A stretch of DNA of 60,680 bases from Thermoplasmata archaeon (GTDB lineage Archaea; Thermoplasmatota; Thermoplasmata; Lutacidiplasmatales; UBA184). Each line of letters begins with the position of its first letter. Position 1 is the first letter of the stretch. This document shows positions 9,104-35,839 of this stretch, one piece after another. The notes under the pieces are model-generated. The model saw only the letters and a list, made by a program, of their open reading frames with translations, had not been told where the DNA came from and did not search any database. The stretch covers positions 1-60,680 of the forward strand of contig JAGWLG010000020.1 of NCBI GenBank assembly GCA_028864975.1, in the 5' to 3' direction. Made by a program: the position numbers and the translations under genes.

Positions 9104-9555
9104 GCGGGGTTCCCGGCGCTCGGTGCGGAGGCAGCCCCCGCCTCGGCCTCCCCGCCCCCGTCGGACGTGTCGAGCGGGGTATCGGTGGCCCCCAGAGCAT
9201 TCGCGAGGGCCTTGAGCGAGGTCAGCGCGCACTTGATCCGAACCGGGGAGAGCGGGATCGCGAGCATCTTCTCCACGTCCTGGCGATGCGTCTTCGACAC
9301 CTGGGCGAGGGGCTGACCCTTGATCTTGGAGGTCAGCATTGAAGCGCTGGCCACCGATATGGCGCAGCCGTCGCCGTTGAACTTCACGTCCTGGATGGTC
9401 TTCTTCGCCCCGTCCAGAGAGAGCTCCACCGTGATCCGGTCGCCACAGAGCGGGTTGTTCTCGCTGCCCGTCAGGTCCGGGTGGTCGAGATGGCCGAAGT
9501 TCCGCGGCCGCTTGTAGTGGTCCAGGATCCGTTCCTGGTACATGTCCCACGCCAT
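9100..9555 (-). CDS. U-type Fe-S scaffold / sulfur transfer protein (IscU/SufU family)
   Basis: YQERILDHY..PRNFG, NPLCGD, GCAISVASASM, RIKCA; Cys37, Cys64 and Cys109. Confidence 0.93.
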   Translation of the reverse strand: MAWDMYQERILDHYKRPRNFGHLDHPDLTGSENNPLCGDRITVELSLDGAKKTIQDVKFNGDGCAISVASASMLTSKIKGQPLAQVSKTHRQDVEKMLAIPLSPVRIKCALTSLKALANALGATDTPLDTSDGGGEAEAGAASAPSAGNPA

Positions 9556-9672: not shown

Positions 9673-11082
9673 ATGGCCAGCGGCGTCGTCGCTCCTTCGG
9701 ACTGGTTCACCGAGCGCCAGGTCCGAGAGGTGGGGTCCTCGCTCTCCGATCCCGTCTCCGTGACCGCCCATCGGAACGAGGCGTTCCAGGTGTTCCGACG
9801 GCTCCCGGTCGAGCTCAACCCGCTCTATCGCCAATACGCCTACTACGGTGGCGTGGACCTGCGTCACCTCGACCCCGCGGGCCAGGGGAACAAGGTCCGC
9901 CCCCCGACCCCCGATGAGCGCTCCATCCTCGTGGTCCACGATGCCGCAGGGTCGCACGTTCAGGTCCCGGACGAGCTCCGCTCCGCAGGAGTTCAGCTCG
10001 AGGTGGTCCCGGAGCTCCTCCGCGGCGCCCATGCTGAGCCGTTCCTTCGCGCCGGAGAACCGCTCGCCGAGAAGTTCATCGCGCTCAACTCCGCGTTGCT
10101 GAATCGCGGGGTCTATCTGGAGGTCCCTGACGACCTCTCCGCCCCGGTCCGGGTCAAGGATGTGACCGTCCTGTCGCGACCGAACGAAGCCCTCCTCGTT
10201 CGCCGCGTCGTGCGCGCAGGGAAGGGGACCCGGGTCTGCTACAGTGAGGAGCTCTACTCCACACAGGCCTCCGCGGACCAGCGCCTCTATTCCTCCGCTG
10301 TCCACGCCACCACAGGACCCGGCGCCCAGTTGGTCTATCTCACGGTCCACGCCCCCGATGCGAACGCCGTGGCGTTCTATTCACGGGAGGCGGCGACGGG
10401 GAAGGACTCCCGGCTGGGGTGGGTGTGGTCCGGCTTCGGCGGGATGCGCACGAACTACCGCAACATCACCCACCTCGCGAATCCCGGCTCGGAGGCGGAC
10501 GACCTCCAGACCGTCTACGGTGACGGCGAGTCGGCCTTCAACAATTACGTGGAGATCACCCACGACAGGGACGCGACGAAGGGACAGTCCATCACCCGTG
10601 GGGTCTTCAAGGACCACTCCCGGGGAACCTCCCGGGGGATGATGCGGATCCTCCCGAAGACCCAGAAGGTCGTCTCCTACCTCTCGGAGCACGGCATGCT
10701 CCTCTCGCGGACCGCCCGATGCGAGACCGCCCCCGACCTCGAGATCCTTTCGTCGATGGACGTCAAGGCGACCCACTCTTCCTCCGTCGCCCCGATCGAC
10801 CAGGAGAAGATCTTCTACCTGGAGAGCCGAGGCATCGAACGGAAGGAAGCGACCCGGATGATCACCGAGGGCTTCCTCTCTCATGTTCTGGACCGAGCTC
10901 CGGTCACCGGTTTACGTGAGGTCCTGTACCCCATCGTGGACGCGCGGTGGAACGGCAGGGCCGTGGTCTGGGCCCCGGAGGGCCCGCTCCCCGACCTTCC
11001 CCCTCTGGGCATCGTCGGTTGGGGCGAACTGGGCGACTGGCGGATGGATACGAAGCTCCGTGACACCGCGGGTCGAGCCTGA
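9673..11082 (+). CDS. sufD: Fe-S cluster assembly protein SufD
   Basis: SufBD beta-helix signature; C-terminal P.LEI...DVKATHSSSVAPID.EKIFYLESRGI...EA.RMI..GF. Start set at ATG 9673. Confidence 0.88.
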   Translation: MASGVVAPSDWFTERQVREVGSSLSDPVSVTAHRNEAFQVFRRLPVELNPLYRQYAYYGGVDLRHLDPAGQGNKVRPPTPDERSILVVHDAAGSHVQVPDELRSAGVQLEVVPELLRGAHAEPFLRAGEPLAEKFIALNSALLNRGVYLEVPDDLSAPVRVKDVTVLSRPNEALLVRRVVRAGKGTRVCYSEELYSTQASADQRLYSSAVHATTGPGAQLVYLTVHAPDANAVAFYSREAATGKDSRLGWVWSGFGGMRTNYRNITHLANPGSEADDLQTVYGDGESAFNNYVEITHDRDATKGQSITRGVFKDHSRGTSRGMMRILPKTQKVVSYLSEHGMLLSRTARCETAPDLEILSSMDVKATHSSSVAPIDQEKIFYLESRGIERKEATRMITEGFLSHVLDRAPVTGLREVLYPIVDARWNGRAVVWAPEGPLPDLPPLGIVGWGELGDWRMDTKLRDTAGRA

Positions 11083-27527: not shown

Positions 27528-28943
27528 CTACCCGACCGCGCCGGTCATCTCCAGTTGGATCAGGCGGTTCAACTCGAGCGCGTAGTCGACGGGCAGCTCC
27601 TTCGCGAACTCCGCCAGGAACCCCATCAGGATCAGGTGGATCGCGTCCGACTCGTTGAGCCCGCGGCTCATGAGATAGAAGATCTGCTCCTCCCCGATCT
27701 TCCCCACGACTGCCTCGTGGGTGATGGTCACGTCCTCGTACTCGTGGACCTCGTTGTACGGGTACGTGTCCGACCGGGAGATCGCGTCGGGCAGCAGCGC
27801 GTCGCAACGAACCGCGGACTTCGACCCCGTCGCGCCACGGGCGACGTGCAGCAGCCCGCGGTAGGAGGTTCTCCCTCCGCGTATCGCGATCGACTTGCCG
27901 ATGATCTTGCTCGAGGTCTCCGGGGCCGAGTGGACCGCCTTCGCCCCGGAGTCGATGATCTGGCCCTCGCTGGCGAAAGCCACGGAGAGCATGTCGCCCC
28001 GGGCGCCGCGACCCTTGAGGTAGACGGAGGGATACTTCATCGTCACCTTGCTCCCGAGGTTCCCGTCGACCCACTCGACGAGAGAGTTCTCGAAGGCATG
28101 CGCCCGCTTCGTGACCAGATTGTAGACGTTCTTCGACCAGTTCTGGACGGTCGTGTACCGGATCTTGGCATCCGCCTCAGCGATGACCTCCACCACCGCG
28201 GCATGGAGCGAGTTCTCCGAGTAGACGGGTGCCGTGCAACCCTCGATGTAGTGGACCTTCGCGCCCTTGTCGGCGATGATGAGCGTCCGCTCGAACTGCC
28301 CTACGGACTTCGCGTTGATCCGGAAGTAGGCCTGGAGAGGGATCCCCGCGTCGACCCCGGGGGGGATGTAGACAAAGCTGCCCCCCGACCAGACGGCGCT
28401 GTTGAGCGCAGAGAACTTGTTGTCGTTGTACGGAACGATCTTCCCGAAGTACTTGCGCAGGATGTCGGGGTGCTCACGGACCGCGGTGTCCGTGTCGCAG
28501 AAGATGACGCCCTTCTTCGCGAGGTCATCGCGGATCTTGTGGTAGACGGTCCCGCTGTCGTACTGGGCCCCGACCCCCGCGAAGTACTCTCGCTCCGCCT
28601 TGGGGATGCCCAAGCGGTCGAAGGTGTTCTTGATGTCCGGGGGCAGGTCCTCCCATCGCTTCTTGGTGTCGCCCTCGGCGAGCGGGTTCGCGTAGTAGGT
28701 GTAGGCGTCGAAGTCCAGGTCCGAGAGGTCCGGACCCCAATCGGGCATGGGCCGCTGGAGGAAATGCTCGTACGCCCGCAGTCGGTACTCGAGCATCCAG
28801 GAGGGCTCGTGCTTGAGGTCGGAGATCTGACGGATGATGTCGCGCGAGAGCCCCTTCGCGGTCCGTACCTTGTAGGTCTCGGGGTCCTTGAAATCGTATC
28901 GGGTGTAGTCGAGGGGGGTGATCTCGGCAGCGTTCTGAGCCAT
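27528..28943 (-). CDS. sufB: Fe-S cluster assembly protein SufB
   Basis: From ATG 28943 (GGAGG RBS 7 nt upstream): GVGAQYDS, NKFSALNSAVWSGGSF, GQFERTLI, HYIEGCTAP, SLHAAVVE, HEA.VGKI.EEQIFYLMSRG. Confidence 0.96.
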   Translation of the reverse strand: MAQNAAEITPLDYTRYDFKDPETYKVRTAKGLSRDIIRQISDLKHEPSWMLEYRLRAYEHFLQRPMPDWGPDLSDLDFDAYTYYANPLAEGDTKKRWEDLPPDIKNTFDRLGIPKAEREYFAGVGAQYDSGTVYHKIRDDLAKKGVIFCDTDTAVREHPDILRKYFGKIVPYNDNKFSALNSAVWSGGSFVYIPPGVDAGIPLQAYFRINAKSVGQFERTLIIADKGAKVHYIEGCTAPVYSENSLHAAVVEVIAEADAKIRYTTVQNWSKNVYNLVTKRAHAFENSLVEWVDGNLGSKVTMKYPSVYLKGRGARGDMLSVAFASEGQIIDSGAKAVHSAPETSSKIIGKSIAIRGGRTSYRGLLHVARGATGSKSAVRCDALLPDAISRSDTYPYNEVHEYEDVTITHEAVVGKIGEEQIFYLMSRGLNESDAIHLILMGFLAEFAKELPVDYALELNRLIQLEMTGAVG

Positions 28944-28950
28944 GGTCGGA

Positions 28951-28993
28951 CCTCCCTTGGTCAACAAATTAGAACACCATTCAGTATTTAATT
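28951..28993 (-). promoter_or_regulatory. Internal sufB promoter/RBS region
   Basis: AT-rich island in a high-GC genome. ATTAAATA TATA-like box (28985-28992, minus), GGAGG (28951-28955) and AATTA-N17-TAATT (28967-28993). Confidence 0.5.
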
Positions 28994-29044: not shown

Positions 29045-30394
29045 TCAGCGCCCGAGGATCTGTTGCACCTTCGTCAGCGCCTCGACCAGACGGGTCGTGT
29101 CCTCCCGGTCGTTGTAGAGATAGTAGCTCGCCCGGGTCAGCGCTGGAACCCCGTAGCGCTTCATCACCAACTGAGCGCAGTGATGGCCGGCACGGACCGC
29201 CACCCCCTCGGCGTCGAGCAGGGTCGCGATATCGTGGGGGTGGATCCCCTTCAGCGAGAAGGAGAGGACCGCTTCTCGGTCGCGCCCCACGGGGGGGCCG
29301 TAGATCGTGAGGGCCTCGCCCAGGGCCGCCTTCAGCCGCTTCTCCGCGTCGAGCAAGAGCTCGTGCTCGAAGGACCGAAGCTCGTCCCACCCCACCCGAG
29401 ATAGGTAGTCGAGCGCGCGTGAGAGCACGACGGCGCCCGCCACGTTCGGGGTCCCGGCCTCGAACTTGAGGGGGGGGTCCTTGTAGGTGATGTCCGCCTT
29501 GTCCACCTCCCGGATCATCTCGCCTCCTCCCATGTAGGGCGGGAGCTTCCGAAGGACCTCCTTCTTCCCCCAGAGGACACCGATGCCCGTCGGTCCCAGG
29601 ACCTTGTGGCCAGAGAACGCCAGCAGGTCGACCCCCATCTCCTGGACGTCGATCGGGAGATGCGGGGCTCCCTGCGCCGCGTCGAGGAGCACGAGCGCAC
29701 CCGCATCGTGCGCGCGCTCGGTGAGCTCGCGGACGGGGTTCACGGTCCCCAGGACGTTCGAAACGTGGGTGAAGGTGAAGAGCTTCGTTCCGCGCGCGAG
29801 GAGGCGGTCGAGGTCCTCCCCGCGGAGCCGACCGTCGTCGGTCAGGCCCACGAAGTCGAGCTGGACCCCCGGGTGTTGGCGCAGGAGGTGCCAAGGGACG
29901 ATGTTCGAGTGATGCTCCATCTCCGTCGACACGACCCGATCGCCTCGAGCGAGGCCGCCGCGGGCAAGGGCGCCTGCGACCAGGTTGATCGCCTCGGTCG
30001 TTCCTCGGAGGAAGACCACCTCCTCGGGGTCCTTCGCGTGGAGGAACTGCGCGACCCTCGCCCGGGCCTTCTCGTAGGCCTCGGTCGCCTCTTCCGATAG
30101 CGCGTAGACCCCGCGATGGACGTTCGCGTTGAGCGTCTCGTAGAACTCCCGCTCCGCGTCGATGACCGAGCGGGGCTTCTGACTGGTGGCGGCCGAGTCC
30201 AAGTAGGTCAGCGGGCGCCCGTGGAACGACCGCTCGAGGATCGGGAAGTCCTTTCGGCACCCGTGGAGACCCCGTTCGCTCAGTTCGGGTCGGCGGGGGA
30301 CGGTCCTTGCCTCCGAGGGGGAAGCTCGCGCACGCGGGCTTCGTGGCGCTGGCCTCCCGGAGGCAGGAGCCGTGGCCGCCGCCGCACGGACCAT
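29045..30394 (-). CDS. sufS: Cysteine desulfurase, SufS family
   Basis: YLDSAATSQKP, ANVHRG, EHHSNIVPW, FSGHK (PLP Lys), FEAGTPN, RAGHHCAQ (catalytic Cys). Confidence 0.96.
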   Translation of the reverse strand: MVRAAAATAPASGRPAPRSPRARASPSEARTVPRRPELSERGLHGCRKDFPILERSFHGRPLTYLDSAATSQKPRSVIDAEREFYETLNANVHRGVYALSEEATEAYEKARARVAQFLHAKDPEEVVFLRGTTEAINLVAGALARGGLARGDRVVSTEMEHHSNIVPWHLLRQHPGVQLDFVGLTDDGRLRGEDLDRLLARGTKLFTFTHVSNVLGTVNPVRELTERAHDAGALVLLDAAQGAPHLPIDVQEMGVDLLAFSGHKVLGPTGIGVLWGKKEVLRKLPPYMGGGEMIREVDKADITYKDPPLKFEAGTPNVAGAVVLSRALDYLSRVGWDELRSFEHELLLDAEKRLKAALGEALTIYGPPVGRDREAVLSFSLKGIHPHDIATLLDAEGVAVRAGHHCAQLVMKRYGVPALTRASYYLYNDREDTTRLVEALTKVQQILGR

Positions 30395-30404
30395 GCGTGC
30401 CCCC

Positions 30405-31190
30405 TCACGCCTTTGTGGGTTGCGCGGCGGCCTGTCCGACCTTGACCCAGTCGTAGCCCTTCGCCTCGAGCTGCTCGGCGAGCTCTCGGCCCCCGGACAA
30501 CGCGACGACGCCGTCCACCATGACGTAGACGCGGTCCGGCCGCGCGTACTTCAGGATGCGCTGGTAATGCGTGATGACCAGGATCCCCCGGTCGGGTCCG
30601 CGAAGCTTGTCCACCGTCTCCCCCACCTGCTTCACGGCGTCGATGTCGAGCCCACTGTCCGGCTCGTCGAGGATCGCGAACCGGGGGTCGAGCGTCGCCA
30701 TCTGGAGCACCTCGGTGCGTTTCTTCTCCCCGCCGGAGAACCCCTCGTTCAGCGGGCGCTTGACGAAGGAGGCGTCGAGACCGAGCAAGGCGAGGTTGCG
30801 GTCCAGCTGCGCTTGGAACTGGTCCGTGTCCACTTCCTCCGCCTTGCGGGTCTGGGTGAACGAGGTCCACAGGAACTTCGAGAGCGTCACTCCCGAGACC
30901 TCGACGGGGTACTGGAAACCCAGGAAGAGCCCGGCCCGAGCGCGCTTATCGGGCGAGAGCTTGAGCAGGTCGATGTCGTCGAGGTGCGCTTCCCCCGCGG
31001 TGATGGTGTACTTCGGGTGGCCCGCGAGCGCGTAGGCGAGCGTGCTCTTCCCGGACCCGTTGGGGCCCATCAGCGCGACGAGCTCGCCGGTCCGGAGCGT
31101 CAGGTTGACCCCCTTGAGGATCTCCTTGCCTCCGACCGTCGTGTGGAGGTTCTTCACGGTGAGCACATGGCCGGGTGCGGTCGCTGCCAT
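30405..31190 (-). CDS. sufC: Fe-S cluster assembly ATPase SufC
   Basis: GPNGSGKST, FLGFQYP.E..GV, NEGFSGGEKKR, LDEPDSGLDIDA, ITHY. Start set at ATG 31190. Confidence 0.96.
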   Translation of the reverse strand: MAATAPGHVLTVKNLHTTVGGKEILKGVNLTLRTGELVALMGPNGSGKSTLAYALAGHPKYTITAGEAHLDDIDLLKLSPDKRARAGLFLGFQYPVEVSGVTLSKFLWTSFTQTRKAEEVDTDQFQAQLDRNLALLGLDASFVKRPLNEGFSGGEKKRTEVLQMATLDPRFAILDEPDSGLDIDAVKQVGETVDKLRGPDRGILVITHYQRILKYARPDRVYVMVDGVVALSGGRELAEQLEAKGYDWVKVGQAAAQPTKA

Positions 31191-31317
31191 TGTCCCGGTC
31201 GACGCAGCCCACCTCGTATATAAGTGCCAATCGGTGCCTAAATCCCGTCGTTCCATATACCTGGGGAGCATCCACCCCTACGCGGGAGGCGCTCCGGACC
31301 GAGAGCTCTGAGCCACG

Positions 31318-31989
31318 ATGGGCGCGGCCGAGATGCTCCTGGGCGAGGGCACCAAGTCGAAGATCCTGGACGAGCTCAACGAGGGACCTCGAACGGCCCG
31401 GGAGCTCGCGAAGAAGCTGGGGATCCAGGAGAGCGCGGTGCGTATGCACCTGGAGCGGCTCTCGGAGCGCGGCATCGTCTCGCCGCACTTCAGCCGGGAG
31501 GGGGTGGGAAGGCCTCGGAAGCGCTACGGGCTCACCTCCGAAGGCTTCGAGCTCTTTCCGCGGCGCTACGAGCTCATGGTGGACTCCGTCATCCAGGCGG
31601 TCCTCGAGAAGGAAGGAGAACCGTACCTCGCGGCGCTCTTCGTGCGCGCCGCTGACCGCTTCGCGGAGCGGCTGGTCGAGGACTTCCCGCAGCTCCGGAC
31701 CCCGCCTTCCGACCCCGAACGAAGGCTTCGCCTCGTCGCCCGCGTGCTCGATTCGATTGGTCAAAAGGCCGAGGTCGTGCGCGACGCGAAGGGTCCACGC
31801 CTCGTCCGAAGGAACTGCATCTTTCGCGGAAGCGCGCTCGCCCACTCGAACCTCATCTGCGAGGTGTTCGACCGTCGGCTGTTGCAGAAGTTGCTCGGTG
31901 GGGGTTCGGTCGACCTGCTCAGCTCGGTGCCGCGGGGCGCGGCCGCGTGCAGTCATCTGATCCAGCTCACCTCGGCGGCTGCCGAGTGA
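31318..31989 (+). CDS. SufR-like HTH transcriptional regulator with C-terminal Cys cluster
   Basis: N-terminal wHTH (ELAKKLGI..SAVRMHL..L, GRP.KRY.LT), FP.RY motif and C-terminal C-x13-C...C. Divergent from sufC. Confidence 0.85.
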   Translation: MGAAEMLLGEGTKSKILDELNEGPRTARELAKKLGIQESAVRMHLERLSERGIVSPHFSREGVGRPRKRYGLTSEGFELFPRRYELMVDSVIQAVLEKEGEPYLAALFVRAADRFAERLVEDFPQLRTPPSDPERRLRLVARVLDSIGQKAEVVRDAKGPRLVRRNCIFRGSALAHSNLICEVFDRRLLQKLLGGGSVDLLSSVPRGAAACSHLIQLTSAAAE

Positions 31990-32047
31990 GCGGCGAGGTC
32001 CCCGCGGACCCGGGGGACCCAGCCCGCGCAAGGTCGGGACCACATCC

Positions 32048-33076
32048 ATGAACGAAGGAGTCGCCACCGAACCCACGAGCCGCCCAGGTCGGACGGCCGG
32101 AGGGCCCGAGAGCTCCTCGCTGAGCCCCACCTTTGGGCAGCCGCACGGGAACATCGCCTCCCGGATCGGGAACACCCCGCTGCTCCGTCTTCGCCGAGTG
32201 GCTGCCGCCCTCCCCAAGGGGGTTGAGCTGTGGGCGAAGGCGGAGTTCCTCAATCCGGGAGGTTCGGTCAAGGACCGCACGGCGCTCTCGATCGTCGAGA
32301 GCGGGATCGCCGAAGGGAAGTTCGGGCGGGGGAAGGTCCTTCTGGACGCATCCTCGGGGAACACCGGGATCGCCTACGCCTTCCTGGGGGCGATGTGGGG
32401 ATTTCCCGTCGAGATCGTGCTCCCTCGCAACGCCAGCGTCGAACGGCTGCGGAGGCTCCAGGCCTACGGTGCCCGGCTCACGTTCTCGGACCGGGTCGAG
32501 GGGACCGATGGCGCACAGCGCTTGGCCAAGGAACTCGCGGCGAGCCACCCTTCCCTCTACTGGTACCCCGACCAGTACAACCATCCCGCCAATCCGCTCG
32601 CCCACTACCGCACCACGGGACCGGAGATCTGGCGGGATTCGTGCGGCCTCGTGACCCACTTCGTGGCCGGGATCGGCACGGGAGGCACCATTACGGGCGT
32701 CGGCCGCTTCCTGAAGGAGCGCTCGCCCCATCTCCAGGTCGCGGGCGTGGAGCCCGCGACCGCTCTGCATGGGATCGAGGGGTTGAAGCACCTCGCGACC
32801 GCCCTCCGTCCGGGGGTCTTCGACGAGCGGGGGGTGGACACCCGTCTCAGTGTCGAGACCGAGGATGCCCAGGTCATGACCCGGAGGCTCGCCCGGGAGG
32901 AAGGGCTCTTCGTCGGGACCTCCTCGGGGGCTGCGGTCCACGCGGCGATCGAGTACGGACGAAAGCTCGAGCGAGGTGTCGTGGTCACCATCCTGCCCGA
33001 CGGCGGCGACCGTTACACGCGAGAGAAGTACTGGGAGGAAGGGTCGGAGGGCCGTGAGCGCGGCAGCGTCCCATGA
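32048..33076 (+). CDS. PLP-dependent cysteine synthase family protein (CysM-like)
   Basis: IGNTPL, K.EFLNPGGSVKDR (PLP Lys), SSGNTG, QYN..ANP..HY.TTG.EI, GIGTGGT, G.SSGA, PDGGDRY. Confidence 0.92.
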   Translation: MNEGVATEPTSRPGRTAGGPESSSLSPTFGQPHGNIASRIGNTPLLRLRRVAAALPKGVELWAKAEFLNPGGSVKDRTALSIVESGIAEGKFGRGKVLLDASSGNTGIAYAFLGAMWGFPVEIVLPRNASVERLRRLQAYGARLTFSDRVEGTDGAQRLAKELAASHPSLYWYPDQYNHPANPLAHYRTTGPEIWRDSCGLVTHFVAGIGTGGTITGVGRFLKERSPHLQVAGVEPATALHGIEGLKHLATALRPGVFDERGVDTRLSVETEDAQVMTRRLAREEGLFVGTSSGAAVHAAIEYGRKLERGVVVTILPDGGDRYTREKYWEEGSEGRERGSVP

Positions 33077-33540
33077 GCGCCGGGGTCGCACCCGCCTTCG
33101 ACGAGGTCGAGCTTAGCGCCGCCGATGACGACAAGGTCCGCTCTCACGGCCGGTCGACATACCCCGAGGAGGCCTGCGGAATGCTGGTGGGCCCCGCCCC
33201 TGCTCCAGGAGAGCGGGTTCGGCGCATCGTCGAGGTGCGTTCGGCACCCAACCGCCGGGGCGAGGACCGGGAGCACCGCTTCCTCATCCCCGCCGAGGAG
33301 CTTCGGTCGGTCGAGCGGTCGATCTCGGGAACAGGTCTCGAGGTCGTGGGGTTCTACCACTCGCACCCTGACCACCCTCCGGAACCGAGCCCTTTCGACC
33401 GGGACCACGCCTGGCCCTGGTACGCCTATCTCGTCCTCCGGGTGGTGGAAGGGGGCGCGCAGGAGCTGAACGCGTTCGAGCTCGACCCGGAACGCCGGGT
33501 TTTTCAACCCCGACGGCTGAGGGTCGTGCCGGTAACGTGA
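33073..33540 (+). CDS. JAMM/MPN+ metalloprotease (M67, Mec-like)
   Basis: YPEEACG and complete HSHPDHPPEPSPFD (HxHx7Sx2D). ATGA overlap with cysteine synthase. Confidence 0.93.
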   Translation: MSAGVAPAFDEVELSAADDDKVRSHGRSTYPEEACGMLVGPAPAPGERVRRIVEVRSAPNRRGEDREHRFLIPAEELRSVERSISGTGLEVVGFYHSHPDHPPEPSPFDRDHAWPWYAYLVLRVVEGGAQELNAFELDPERRVFQPRRLRVVPVT

Positions 33541-33589
33541 GTAACCGGAGCGAGCGGAAGGGTCCACGCCAGAGGAGAGAGAAGACAGC

Positions 33590-35077
33590 ATGAGCGTCGA
33601 AGTTCGGGTACCCACGGCGTTGCGCAATCTGACCGGTGGGTCCGCGACCCTCACCTCCGAGGGGCACACCGTCGGGGCCGTGCTCGAGGAGCTAGCGAGC
33701 ACGCACGCGGGTCTCAAGAGGCACCTGTTCACCGAGGACGGGAAGGTCCGCAACTTCGTCTCGATCTACCTCAACGACGAGGACGTTCGTTACCTCCAGC
33801 GCGAGGCCACGCCGGTCCGCGCCGGCGACGTGCTCTCGATCGTGCCGTCGATCGCGGGAGGGACCCCCGGTGCGGTCGCCTATCCTTCGCTATCTCGTCT
33901 CCGCGGGACCTCGGGCACCGGCGGTGCACCGACCCCGCCCCGCGCGCTCACGCCCGAGCAGATGAAGCGCTACAGCCGGCACTTGATCCTCCCGGAAGTG
34001 GGGCTCTCGGGGCAACGGAAGCTCCTCGACTCGAAGGTCCTCATTGTGGGAGCCGGGGGGCTCGGGAGCCCGCTCGCCCTCTATCTGGCCGCGGCGGGCG
34101 TGGGCACGCTCGGCATGGTCGACTTCGATGTCGTCGACGCCTCCAACCTCCAGCGACAGGTCCTCTATGGGACGAAGGACATCGGCACCGCGAAGCTCGA
34201 GGCCGCGAAGCGACGGCTTCAGGACCTCAACCCGGACGTGAAGGTCGCGCCTCACGAGGTGCGACTTTCGAGCGAGAACGCCCTCGACCTGGTCTCGCGC
34301 TACGACGTCGTGGTCGACGGGACCGACAACTTTCCGACCCGCTACCTGGTGAACGACGCGTCGGTCCTGCTCAAGAAGCCGAACGTCTACGGGTCCATCT
34401 ACCGGTTCGAGGGGCAGGTCTCCGTCTTCGATGCTCGGAAAGGGCCTTGCTATCGCTGCCTCTACCAGGAACCCCCTCCTCCCGGCCTGGTCCCTTCGTG
34501 TGCGGAGGGAGGCGTGCTCGGGGTCCTTCCGGGGATTGTCGGGAGCCTTCAGGCGGTGGAGACGCTCAAGGTGCTGCTCGGGAAGGGCGACACGCTCGTG
34601 GGCCGTCTCCTGCTCTTTGACGCCATGGGGTTGCGGTTCCGCGAGCTCAAGGTCCGCAAGAACCCCGACTGCGCCCTCTGTGGCCCGAACGCCACGCAGA
34701 AGGGGCTCATCGACTACGAGCAGTTCTGCGGGATCGGGAAGGAGACGGAGGAGGTCACCGGGCACGAGATCGACCCGGAGGAGCTGAAGACGAAGCTCGA
34801 CCATGGCGAAGCGCTCATCCTTGTGGACGTGCGGGAGCCTGGCGAGTTCGAGATCGCGCACCTCCAAGGCGCGAAGCTCATCCCGCGGGCGTCGCTCCCG
34901 GAACGGCTTGGGGAGCTCTCCACCGCGGACGACCTTGTCGTCTACTGCAAGATGGGGGGCCGCAGCGCGCAAGCGACGAAGTTCCTTCTGGAGATGGGCT
35001 TCCAGAAAGTGCGCAATCTCAAGGGTGGGATCGACGCGTGGTCGGAGCGGATCGACCCTTCCCTTCCACGGTACTGA
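33590..35077 (+). CDS. Fusion: MoaD/ThiS-like ubiquitin-fold carrier + MoeB/E1 adenylyltransferase + rhodanese
   Basis: aa 1-91 ubiquitin fold ending VPSIAGG; E1 motifs RYSRH, GAGGLG, DFD.VD.SNLQRQ, CYRC, CAEGGV, CALC; rhodanese LVDVRE..E and VYCKMGGRS. Confidence 0.93.
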   Translation: MSVEVRVPTALRNLTGGSATLTSEGHTVGAVLEELASTHAGLKRHLFTEDGKVRNFVSIYLNDEDVRYLQREATPVRAGDVLSIVPSIAGGTPGAVAYPSLSRLRGTSGTGGAPTPPRALTPEQMKRYSRHLILPEVGLSGQRKLLDSKVLIVGAGGLGSPLALYLAAAGVGTLGMVDFDVVDASNLQRQVLYGTKDIGTAKLEAAKRRLQDLNPDVKVAPHEVRLSSENALDLVSRYDVVVDGTDNFPTRYLVNDASVLLKKPNVYGSIYRFEGQVSVFDARKGPCYRCLYQEPPPPGLVPSCAEGGVLGVLPGIVGSLQAVETLKVLLGKGDTLVGRLLLFDAMGLRFRELKVRKNPDCALCGPNATQKGLIDYEQFCGIGKETEEVTGHEIDPEELKTKLDHGEALILVDVREPGEFEIAHLQGAKLIPRASLPERLGELSTADDLVVYCKMGGRSAQATKFLLEMGFQKVRNLKGGIDAWSERIDPSLPRY

Positions 35078-35083
35078 GCGCAG

Positions 35084-35145
35084 GAAGGGCCAGTGCCCTT
35101 CGATAACCTCCGGGTTCGTCACCGGCGGTGAACGACCGGGTTATC
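35084..35145 (+). terminator. Two tandem stem-loops after the E1 fusion gene
   Basis: GAAGGGC-cagt-GCCCTTC (35084-35101) and an imperfect hairpin bounded by GATAACC (35102-35108) and GGTTATC (35139-35145). Confidence 0.35.
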
Positions 35146-35209: not shown

Positions 35210-35839
35210 ATGTCCGAGATAGGTTCGTCCCCACCGGGTTCACCTCTCTCGGCGGGACCCGCCCCGCCGCTCCGTCCGCCGCCATCCCAAGGTCGCAGGA
35301 AGAAGTTGGGGATCGTCGTAGGTGTCGTGGTGGTGATCGCCTCTGTCGGTCTCGCGGGCGCCTGGTACATGGGTCTTTTTGCAGGGTCCGGGACCGTCGC
35401 GATGTACATCCACGACGCGCCCTGCGTCTGCACTCACGTCTACGTCACCTTCACCCAGGTCCAAGTGCACAAGGCCAACGGGACCATGATGGGCAGCGGC
35501 GGATGGTTCGTGATCAGTAGCTCGGCCCAGACCTGGGACCTGCTCCGGTTGAACGGGAGCGCTTTGGAAACGCTCCTTGCGTCCGCGAACGTCCCTGCGG
35601 GCCACTACACCATGGTCCAGCTGACCGTGCAGAACGTGACCGTCGACACGGTCGCGGGGGCCTCGATCGTGGCGGAGGTTCCGAACTCCTCGGTCCACAT
35701 CGAGGGGCCCTTCGACATCACCGCGGGGTCGACCACGACGCTCACGCTCGACGTGAACCTGGGCACGAGCCTGCACGTCAACGCGAACGGGACCGCGGTG
35801 TTCACCCCGAACATCGCATTGGTCGTGGGCAGTCGGTAG
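35210..35839 (+). CDS. DUF4382-like membrane-anchored protein
   Basis: N-terminal TM helix, then 'VAMYIHDAP....HVYVTF..VQVH...W......DLL.L...L.S.NVPAG.YT.V.L'. Confidence 0.75.
   Translation: MSEIGSSPPGSPLSAGPAPPLRPPPSQGRRKKLGIVVGVVVVIASVGLAGAWYMGLFAGSGTVAMYIHDAPCVCTHVYVTFTQVQVHKANGTMMGSGGWFVISSSAQTWDLLRLNGSALETLLASANVPAGHYTMVQLTVQNVTVDTVAGASIVAEVPNSSVHIEGPFDITAGSTTTLTLDVNLGTSLHVNANGTAVFTPNIALVVGSR

Follow-up and report, generated by a model that had tools for sequence, protein, structure and literature searches.

Why would an archaeon keep genes that probably serve cysteine synthesis on a protein carrier back to back with the genes for iron-sulfur (Fe-S) cluster assembly, behind a gene for a SufR-like regulator? 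The question is raised by a locus in the window analyzed here, that is, the whole 60,680-nucleotide stretch of a Thermoplasmata archaeon (GCA_028864975.1, contig JAGWLG010000020.1). In this locus, a regulator, a CysM-like cysteine synthase, a JAMM metalloprotease and a fusion of ubiquitin-like (Ubl), E1 and rhodanese domains are encoded on one strand and diverge from sufC-sufS-sufB. Coupling of the cysteine module to Fe-S assembly is well supported because the linkage to suf genes persists across genera, families and gene orders, and in bacterial loci. With somewhat better than even confidence, the locus can be interpreted as a divergon for Fe-S metabolism in which a SufR-like repressor would act on both arms, cysteine would be made on the carrier, and SufS would consume this cysteine.

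Organization of the locus

The components of the locus are the following:

31318-31989, plus strand: regulator, 223 aa, ArsR-type winged helix (HTH_5, E 2e-11)
32048-33076, plus strand: CysM-like, pyridoxal phosphate (PLP)-dependent cysteine synthase, 342 aa (PALP family, 237 bits)
33073-33540, plus strand: JAMM/MPN+ metalloprotease, Mec-like, 155 aa (Prok-JAB, 75 bits)
33590-35077, plus strand: Ubl-E1-rhodanese fusion, 495 aa (ThiS, ThiF and Rhodanese)
33590-33862, plus strand: within the fusion, ubiquitin-fold sulfur-carrier domain, CysO/ThiS-like (ThiS, 51 bits, residues 5-91)
33863-35077, plus strand: within the fusion, linker, E1 adenylyltransferase (MoeZ/MoeB-like) and rhodanese (ThiF, 287 bits; Rhodanese, 76 bits)
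31191-31317: divergent control region, 127 bp between sufC and the regulator gene
30405-31190, minus strand: sufC, Fe-S assembly ATPase (TIGR01978, 320 bits, cut-off 213)
29045-30394, minus strand: sufS, cysteine desulfurase (TIGR01979, 549 bits, cut-off 475)
27528-28943, minus strand: sufB, Fe-S scaffold (TIGR01980, 680 bits, cut-off 346)

Domain and NCBIfam profile matches place the four plus-strand and three minus-strand genes where a first-pass annotation, made from the sequence alone, had put them. The plus-strand spacings, expected to be shorter than 60 nt, are successively 58 nt, -4 nt (an ATGA overlap of the synthase and JAMM genes) and 49 nt; the shared divergent region of a claimed ~130 bp measures 127 bp with sufC starting at the in-frame ATG at 31190, a start set from the sequence and from comparison with relatives. 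The sufB gene starts with the ATG at 28943, with GGGAGG just ahead. The host is an archaeon of the class Thermoplasmata, as had been supposed: Rrp4/Rrp41/Rrp42 of the exosome, SBDS, proteasome alpha and RadB are all encoded on this contig.

Linkage to suf genes within the family

A further 16 genomes of the family show the arrangement of suf and the regulator-headed module with every gene in place, a degree of conservation that goes beyond chance, and linkage to suf holds in five of the seven genera. The layouts by genus are:

Genera g1, g2, g4, g6 and g7: sufB-sufS-sufC divergent from regulator-cysM-JAMM-E1, kept; exceptions are the loss of cysM in one g4 genome (G021) and a 6.3-kb insertion between the regulator gene and cysM in one g6 genome (G018; L058 6051-12348)
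Genus g5: CysM absent from six of six genomes and JAMM absent from the locus; in two of the three genomes examined, suf divergent from regulator-(Ubl)-E1, where the carrier is either not fused or missing
Genus g3: three different locations for regulator, suf and cysM-JAMM-E1

In g3, cysM has a bipartite A/T promoter of its own. The first-pass annotation had named a module unlinked to suf in relatives as the observation that would count against it; the linkage is kept in most relatives, and the unlinked state is found in a minority, namely g3.

In four related loci, SufB is matched as two halves about 1 kb apart within a single frame of about 830 aa (L055 2211-4688; L067 8113-10584; G020:C45:61598-64066; G015:C42:16778-19246), which is most simply explained by an intein; the sufB gene of the window itself is uninterrupted.

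Linkage beyond the family and origin of the module

Among 301 genomes of the class Thermoplasmata, the fusion-type E1 occurs in five of the 33 families (two unpublished genomes, G044 and G237, are counted here and in the family tally of CysM and CBS-like genes; no conclusion depends on them). Linkage of the module with suf is seen in four of these families besides the one under study, in at least three other gene orders:

Family f10 (Sysuiplasma-like): SufR-like gene divergent from sufC-sufU-cysM-E1-sufB-sufD-Rieske-sufS-JAMM
Family f24: sufB-sufC divergent from Cys-rich double-HTH regulator-sufC'-sufS-sufU-cysM-JAMM-E1
Family f27: sufB-sufC-sufD-sufU-...-sufS-sufU-cysM-JAMM-E1, on one strand
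Family f29: sufS-cysM-JAMM-E1 in one genome; no suf gene within 7.7 kb in another

The regulator of family f24, a protein of 258-259 aa with two HTH_3 modules and CxxC/CPC motifs, is encoded in the place of the SufR-like gene; in one genome of this family, two ferritin-like genes lie between the regulator gene and sufC'-sufS-sufU-cysM-JAMM-E1 (regions L184:4374-5153 and L183:3112-5049, both plus strand).

The same cysM-JAMM-Ubl/E1-rhodanese order is found in about 75 of the 80 best bacterial loci, mostly from Acidobacteriota, and the E1 proteins of these loci are 54-61% identical to that of the archaeal locus. In the bacterial loci with enough flanking sequence (n=56), an iscS-like gene directly follows the E1 gene in 17 cases (about 30%); 13 of these 17 contain an Rrf2 regulator, many contain nifU/iscA, and four run on into sufBCDS. 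Being seen both in archaeal families and in 17 of 56 bacterial loci, the linkage to Fe-S assembly genes is recurrent: counting all of these loci, at least four gene orders tie the module to cysteine desulfurase and Fe-S assembly genes, and three kinds of regulator occur with them.

In a FastTree phylogeny of E1 rooted on the UbaA-like E1s of neighboring Thermoplasmata, the proteins of the family group together in a single clade, with support 96, that is nested among the bacterial sequences. Separate acquisition by the family and by the Sysuiplasma-like lineage, as implied by the FastTree topology, was considered and dropped: a single archaeal E1 clade that includes Sysuiplasma is not rejected by the approximately unbiased (AU) test (p = 0.54). 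The patchy distribution in archaea as opposed to the wide distribution in bacteria favors transfer of the module from bacteria. Lateral exchange with bacteria, which the first-pass annotation had thought plausible in view of similar bacterial clusters, is thus well supported by the nesting of the archaeal E1 among bacterial ones and by the gene order common to about 75 of the 80 bacterial loci. Its further statement that the coupling to Suf matches no described system stands in one respect, in that no paper linking the module to Fe-S assembly genes was found in the text of the open-access literature. The coupling is nevertheless not peculiar to this archaeon, given its recurrence in four more Thermoplasmata families and, with IscR/iscSUA/sufBCDS, in Acidobacteriota, and SufR homologs encoded directly upstream of archaeal suf operons were already reported in a 2025 preprint (Lu et al., bioRxiv 10.64898/2025.12.26.696629).

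The regulator as a SufR-like protein

In an hhalign comparison, the profile of the regulator's orthologs matches a Chloroflexota SufR-like protein that heads sufC at 99.3% (E 1e-20; residues 12-212, 196 columns) and a second bacterial SufR-like protein at 98.7%; both bacterial proteins match the SufR model end to end. SufR-like proteins of COG2345 are defined by R-x-H in the recognition helix, a GRP AT-hook, three cysteines and a glutamate at position +3 from the second cysteine (Lu et al., bioRxiv 10.64898/2025.12.26.696629). The regulator contains an N-terminal winged helix-turn-helix (wHTH) domain with the R-x-H helix (R42, H44), a central AT-hook (G64-R65-P66) and three C-terminal cysteines. 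The spacings of the latter, 13 and 29, are close to the 12 and 27 of SufR from Mycobacterium tuberculosis, in which the cluster cysteines are C179, C192 and C220 (bioRxiv 10.64898/2025.12.26.696629), and the first and third cysteines align with those of the bacterial SufR-like protein. R42, H44, G64-R65-P66, C167, C181, D185 and C211 are invariant among 14 orthologs; orthologs of the Sysuiplasma type have a cysteine at +3 from the second one.

Because of the full-length homology and the R-x-H, GRP and three-cysteine motifs, the SufR-type regulator postulated in the first-pass annotation can be assigned to the SufR-like family; in our reading, it is a family member with a putative [4Fe-4S] site and not the equivalog of cyanobacterial SufR. 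The latter identity was rejected on the score of NCBIfam model TIGR02702 (38 bits, cut-off 179). Some orthologs are annotated by JGI as 'suf operon transcriptional repressor'. In comparisons with the PDB by sequence profile and by Foldseek with the AlphaFold2 model (predicted local distance difference test score, pLDDT, 82.5), the regulator has only generic wHTH matches, in a library that holds no SufR structure.

With the SufR and SufR-like repressors of cyanobacteria, Mycobacterium and Streptomyces, the regulator thus shares the R-x-H wHTH domain, the AT-hook, the three cysteines and the proximity to suf genes. Bacterial SufR heads sufBDCS, whereas the archaeal one heads the cysteine module and faces suf.

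Promoter elements and transcription

The divergent region contains a bipartite element, TATATAAG-N14(..GGTG..)-TAAAT, at 31217-31243. Its first part, TATATAAG, is 26 nt away from the start codon of sufC and can be read as the sufC TATA box, so that the sufC mRNA is probably leaderless; TAAAT is located 14 bp further. The element recurs in 17 of 20 related intergenic regions, at 24-33 nt from the sufC start codon within the family, and scores 29.3 bits with a position weight matrix (PWM) built from relatives, the top match in the genome. A similar element precedes sufB:

28966-28993, minus strand: promoter/operator-like element, TTAAATA, then about 13 nt including GGTG, then TAATTT

The latter element is present in 16 of 16 family members examined and, with a PWM trained on relatives only, scores 32.3 bits, the next best match in the 3.6-Mb genome having 16.6. 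Seven consecutive A/T are encountered at just four places in the window, which has 68% G+C, and two of these are in the cluster (31217 and 28985-28993). The candidate site resembles those of SufR-like repressors in having A/T tracts around a short GTG-containing core, and differs from those of bacterial SufR in enclosing an archaeal TATA box.

The strong TATA-like tracts of the cluster are confined to the divergent region and the sufB upstream region, and no A/T tract was found in either of the two internal gaps of the plus-strand operon, which fits a single plus-strand transcript; from this, we infer that regulator, cysM, JAMM and E1 genes are co-transcribed. Past the E1 stop codon, at a distance of 7 nt, there is a 7-bp stem with a 4-nt loop (GAAGGGC CAGT GCCCTTC, 35084-35101) without a T-run, and a DUF4382 gene starts downstream at 35210.

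A scan of the whole genome with the two PWMs yielded, beyond the two cluster sites, weak matches only. By the divergent-region PWM, the promoter of a ZIP metal transporter gene (G000:C64:26933; L153 2534-2565), with CAC-N6-GTG between A/T tracts, scores 17.2 bits, and that of a tandem-rhodanese sulfurtransferase gene (G000:C15:29936; L154 2537-2568) scores 13.7 bits. Both functions would suit a SufR regulon; the scores are weak. In view of these weak matches, and of a relaxed form of the composite pattern at four unrelated genes, the claim of a regulon was dropped. The relaxed pattern was not found at the proteasome promoter.

Enzymes of the cysteine module

As stated in the first-pass annotation, all four functions of the M. 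tuberculosis CysM, CysO, Mec and MoeZR proteins have counterparts in the locus, and their active sites are intact. The best-scoring model for the synthase is cysM (TIGR01138), with 342 bits against an equivalog cut-off of 394; the best PDB matches are enterobacterial CysM (239 bits) and M. tuberculosis CysM (193 bits). The PLP-binding Lys75, in SVKDR, is intact, and Arg210 of E. coli CysM aligns with a lysine; prediction of the substrate from this Arg210/Arg220 position was considered and set aside. Residues 1 to about 35 of the synthase (32048-32150) are of low complexity, rich in Pro, Ser, Gly and Thr, and have no counterpart in most relatives, in which the matches begin at residues 31-40. 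The JAMM protease, for which 2KCQ is the best solved relative, retains the catalytic motif (E32, H96-x-H98...S106..D109).

The fusion protein combines a ThiS fold (residues 5-91), a ThiF/MoeB-type E1 (128-362) and a rhodanese domain (396-486), and scores 489 bits with the MoeZ model NF005902, under its equivalog cut-off of 647. The E1 motifs GxGxxG (154-159) and CxxC (287-290 and 361-364) and the loop Cys304 are intact, as is Cys453 of the rhodanese domain in CKMGGR; both CxxC motifs, Cys304 and Cys453 are kept in 93 of 93 full-length fusions. The Ubl domain ends with AGG91, an internal site of the fusion, and the AGG, followed by a variable linker of 11-44 aa, is likewise present in all 93. 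In one genome (G022; L067 4242-4499, minus strand), the carrier is a separate open reading frame ending in AGG-stop, just ahead of an E1 that lacks the Ubl domain; neither JAMM nor cysM was found at this locus, which represents a natural unfused state of the module.

In the genome, which is 89.6% complete, the fusion is the sole ThiF-family gene and is accompanied by three further ThiS/MoaD-fold genes, whereas cysE and assimilatory sulfite reductase genes were not found. Apart from a CBS-like gene that is universal in the family, the genome has no CysK/M-type gene other than the cysM of the module. On contig C35 of the genome (G000; L011:5870-8785), the gene order is ThrC-like PLP enzyme, 80-aa ThiS/SAMP-like protein, homoserine dehydrogenase, with a second ThiS-fold gene nearby on the other strand (L011:4646-4903); this locus is a candidate for a carrier-dependent route to homocysteine/methionine, which would then rely on the one E1 encoded in the window.

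The SUF set of the organism includes sufB, sufC and sufS, all above the curated cut-offs, and SufD-like and sufU partners 17 kb from sufB, within the same window; SufE was not found in the genome, at the completeness given above. In this second suf locus, sufU (9193-9553, minus strand; NifU_N, 102 bits) diverges from the sufD-like gene (9684-11082, plus strand; 161 bits) across a 130-bp spacer with two TATA-like tracts and an inverted repeat (GCTGAGG...CCTCAGC).

Interpretation and alternatives

Under the favored interpretation, the first gene of the four-gene transcript would encode a SufR-like repressor that probably senses through a [4Fe-4S] cluster. The cluster-loaded protein would bind the divergent region through the HTH domain and the GRP AT-hook and shut off both directions, and once the cluster was lost, whether through a shortage of Fe-S or through damage by oxidants, suf and the downstream module would both be turned on. 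The most likely role of the module is carrier-bound cysteine synthesis. The carrier, encoded as the N-terminus of its own E1, would need to be cleaved behind Gly-Gly91, the neighboring JAMM protease being the likeliest enzyme for this; the E1 would adenylate the freed C-terminus, and a persulfide on Cys453 of the rhodanese domain would convert it to a thiocarboxylate. The CysM-like enzyme would then add this group to an activated serine, probably O-phosphoserine given that no serine acetyltransferase gene was found, and the JAMM protease would release the cysteine for consumption by SufS. From homology and gene context, we infer that the regulator binds a cluster and represses, that the carrier is cleaved, which substrates are used and which way sulfur flows.

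Several observations weigh against this scheme. The TIGR02702 match of the regulator covers the N-terminal part alone. The position of the fourth ligand is occupied by phenylalanine (C-E-V-F-D, with Phe at +3 from the second cysteine) and is followed by the invariant Asp185 at +4, in a region of ambiguous local alignment, and the E195D substitution in M. tuberculosis SufR abolishes the cluster (Lu et al., bioRxiv 10.64898/2025.12.26.696629). The bipartite elements may be merely TATA boxes with proximal promoter elements: as the relaxed pattern also occurs at four unrelated genes of the genome, an operator is not separable from plain promoter architecture. The synthase is closer in sequence to the enterobacterial CysM, which uses sulfide or thiosulfate, than to the M. 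tuberculosis enzyme. Genus g5 retains the regulator, E1 and suf without CysM and JAMM, and in g3 regulator, suf and module are fully unlinked; furthermore, the relatives are kin rather than independent samples, so no statistic is given for the linkage. Finally, making cysteine would amount to a futile cycle if SufS were the source of the sulfur on the rhodanese domain. The proposal that one Fe-S-sensing regulator couples cysteine supply to SufS is therefore retained in part: the linkage to suf is kept in most relatives, co-regulation is read from the shared promoter architecture, and cysteine supply is one reading only, given that the sole E1 and the pattern in g5 fit transfer of sulfur from SufS to the rhodanese domain at least as well.

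In eukaryotes, Nfs1 passes persulfide to Uba4/MOCS3. An analogous arrangement here, with SufS and SufU delivering persulfide to the E1 rhodanese domain and the E1 loading several carriers (for molybdopterin, tRNA thiolation and the ThrC-like homocysteine route), would leave CysM and JAMM as accessories that recapture sulfur. It is a serious possibility, if well short of probable. A single E1 coexists in the genome with three further ThiS/MoaD-fold genes, one of which follows the ThrC-like gene by the homoserine dehydrogenase; g5 keeps regulator-(Ubl)-E1 beside suf after the loss of CysM and JAMM; sufS-sufU is immediately upstream of the module in f24, f27 and f29, and an iscS-like gene follows E1 in bacteria; and MoeZR of M. 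tuberculosis serves molybdenum cofactor and cysteine carriers alike (PMC3227635). Nonetheless, by far most loci, archaeal and bacterial, retain CysM and JAMM along with E1, the carrier fused to E1 is the one encoded next to CysM, and a transfer from cysteine to cysteine gains nothing. Cysteine supply and such a relay are compatible with each other.

The CysM-like enzyme could also act independently of the carrier. E. coli CysM makes S-sulfocysteine from thiosulfate, and the synthase could similarly use thiosulfate, or else free sulfide, with the Ubl domain, E1 and JAMM serving some other thiolation or sampylation-like conjugation. The higher score with the enterobacterial than with the M. tuberculosis CysM (239 versus 193 bits) is in line with this possibility, as is the similarity of E1, Ubl and JAMM to the models of haloarchaeal UbaA, SAMP1 and desampylase, albeit with all scores under the cut-offs. 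An argument for one pathway is, instead, the strict cysM-JAMM-Ubl/E1 order of about 75 loci in bacteria and over 30 in archaea; furthermore, CysM and JAMM have been lost together in g5. Carrier-independent action appears improbable. Least probable of all, to the point of being hardly credible, is that the linkage carries no function, the acquired module having landed by suf and stayed there through inertia, with the regulator controlling suf only. The archaeal E1s may derive from one acquisition, monophyly of the family (f1) and the Sysuiplasma-like family being compatible with the AU test (p = 0.54), and linkage is missing in g3 and in one other genome (G274). Against inertia, at least four differing gene orders keep the module in or next to the suf genes, a similar link to isc/suf exists in bacteria with a different regulator, and the module lies downstream of the regulator gene on the same strand, with internal gaps devoid of promoter-like tracts.

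Relation to known systems and implications

Protein-thiocarboxylate cysteine synthesis by CysO, CysM and Mec+ of M. tuberculosis was reportedly described by Burns and colleagues in 2005. The locus shares with that system and MoeZR the same four clustered activities (PLP synthase, carrier ending in GG, JAMM protease and E1 with rhodanese). It differs in that the E1 is encoded inside the operon, whereas moeZ is unlinked in M. tuberculosis, in that the operon is physically joined to suf, and in that the carrier is fused to the N-terminus of E1 and needs to be released; the synthase shows no particular closeness to M. tuberculosis CysM as compared with other CysM proteins. Cleavage of the fused MoaX in M. 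tuberculosis is a precedent for release of the carrier (PMC4326299). The mec-cysO-cysM operon of M. tuberculosis is under redox control, with the regulator AosR encoded beside it (PMC8280819); a regulator gene also adjoins the module here, but its product is SufR-like and not AosR or SigH.

Bacterial operons that combine ThiS/MoaD, E1-rhodanese, JAB and cysteine synthase, the same gene set as here, were cataloged by Iyer, Burroughs & Aravind 2006 (PMC1779556, Table 1 row 4c). The text of that work has no mention of Fe-S or SufE and lists no archaeal case, whereas the present module is encoded behind a SufR-like gene beside suf. The SAMP/UbaA/HvJAMM1 system of Haloferax is also archaeal, with JAMM and a single E1 that probably serves several ubiquitin-fold proteins. 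The window proteins differ in scoring below the cut-offs of its NCBIfam models, with 350 bits versus 450 (UbaA), 53.7 versus 60 (SAMP1) and 76.7 versus 130 (desampylase); moreover, the E1 clade is of the bacterial type, distinct from the UbaA-like E1s of neighboring Thermoplasmata families. The parts are all of known kinds, and the module is also found in soil bacteria, whereas its repeated link to Fe-S genes seems to be undescribed in the literature searched.

A broader and more speculative proposal, which we hold to be doubtful, is that Suf and the ubiquitin-like thiocarboxylate system work as a single regulated unit of sulfur trafficking, in Acidobacteriota as well as in these archaea. In such a unit, persulfide from SufS/SufU (IscS/IscU) would pass to the E1 rhodanese domain, JAMM would free the carrier, sulfur left unused or salvaged would be put back into cysteine by CysM, and the SufR AT-hooks on the TATA box would shut both promoters. 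If true, prokaryotes would have a counterpart of the Nfs1-Uba4/MOCS3 relay of eukaryotes, and a mechanism would for the first time be described for an archaeal Fe-S-sensing repressor.

Outside a small number of model bacteria, little is understood of how the supply of cysteine and sulfur is matched to Fe-S assembly, and in archaea next to nothing. A physical tie that persists in several archaeal families, and in soil bacteria under another regulator, is a genomic signature of functional partnership. With one regulator, two promoters and seven enzymes, the locus is a compact, testable system in which one could study how archaea sense Fe-S, where the sulfur of protein thiocarboxylates comes from and how a carrier encoded within its own E1 is processed.

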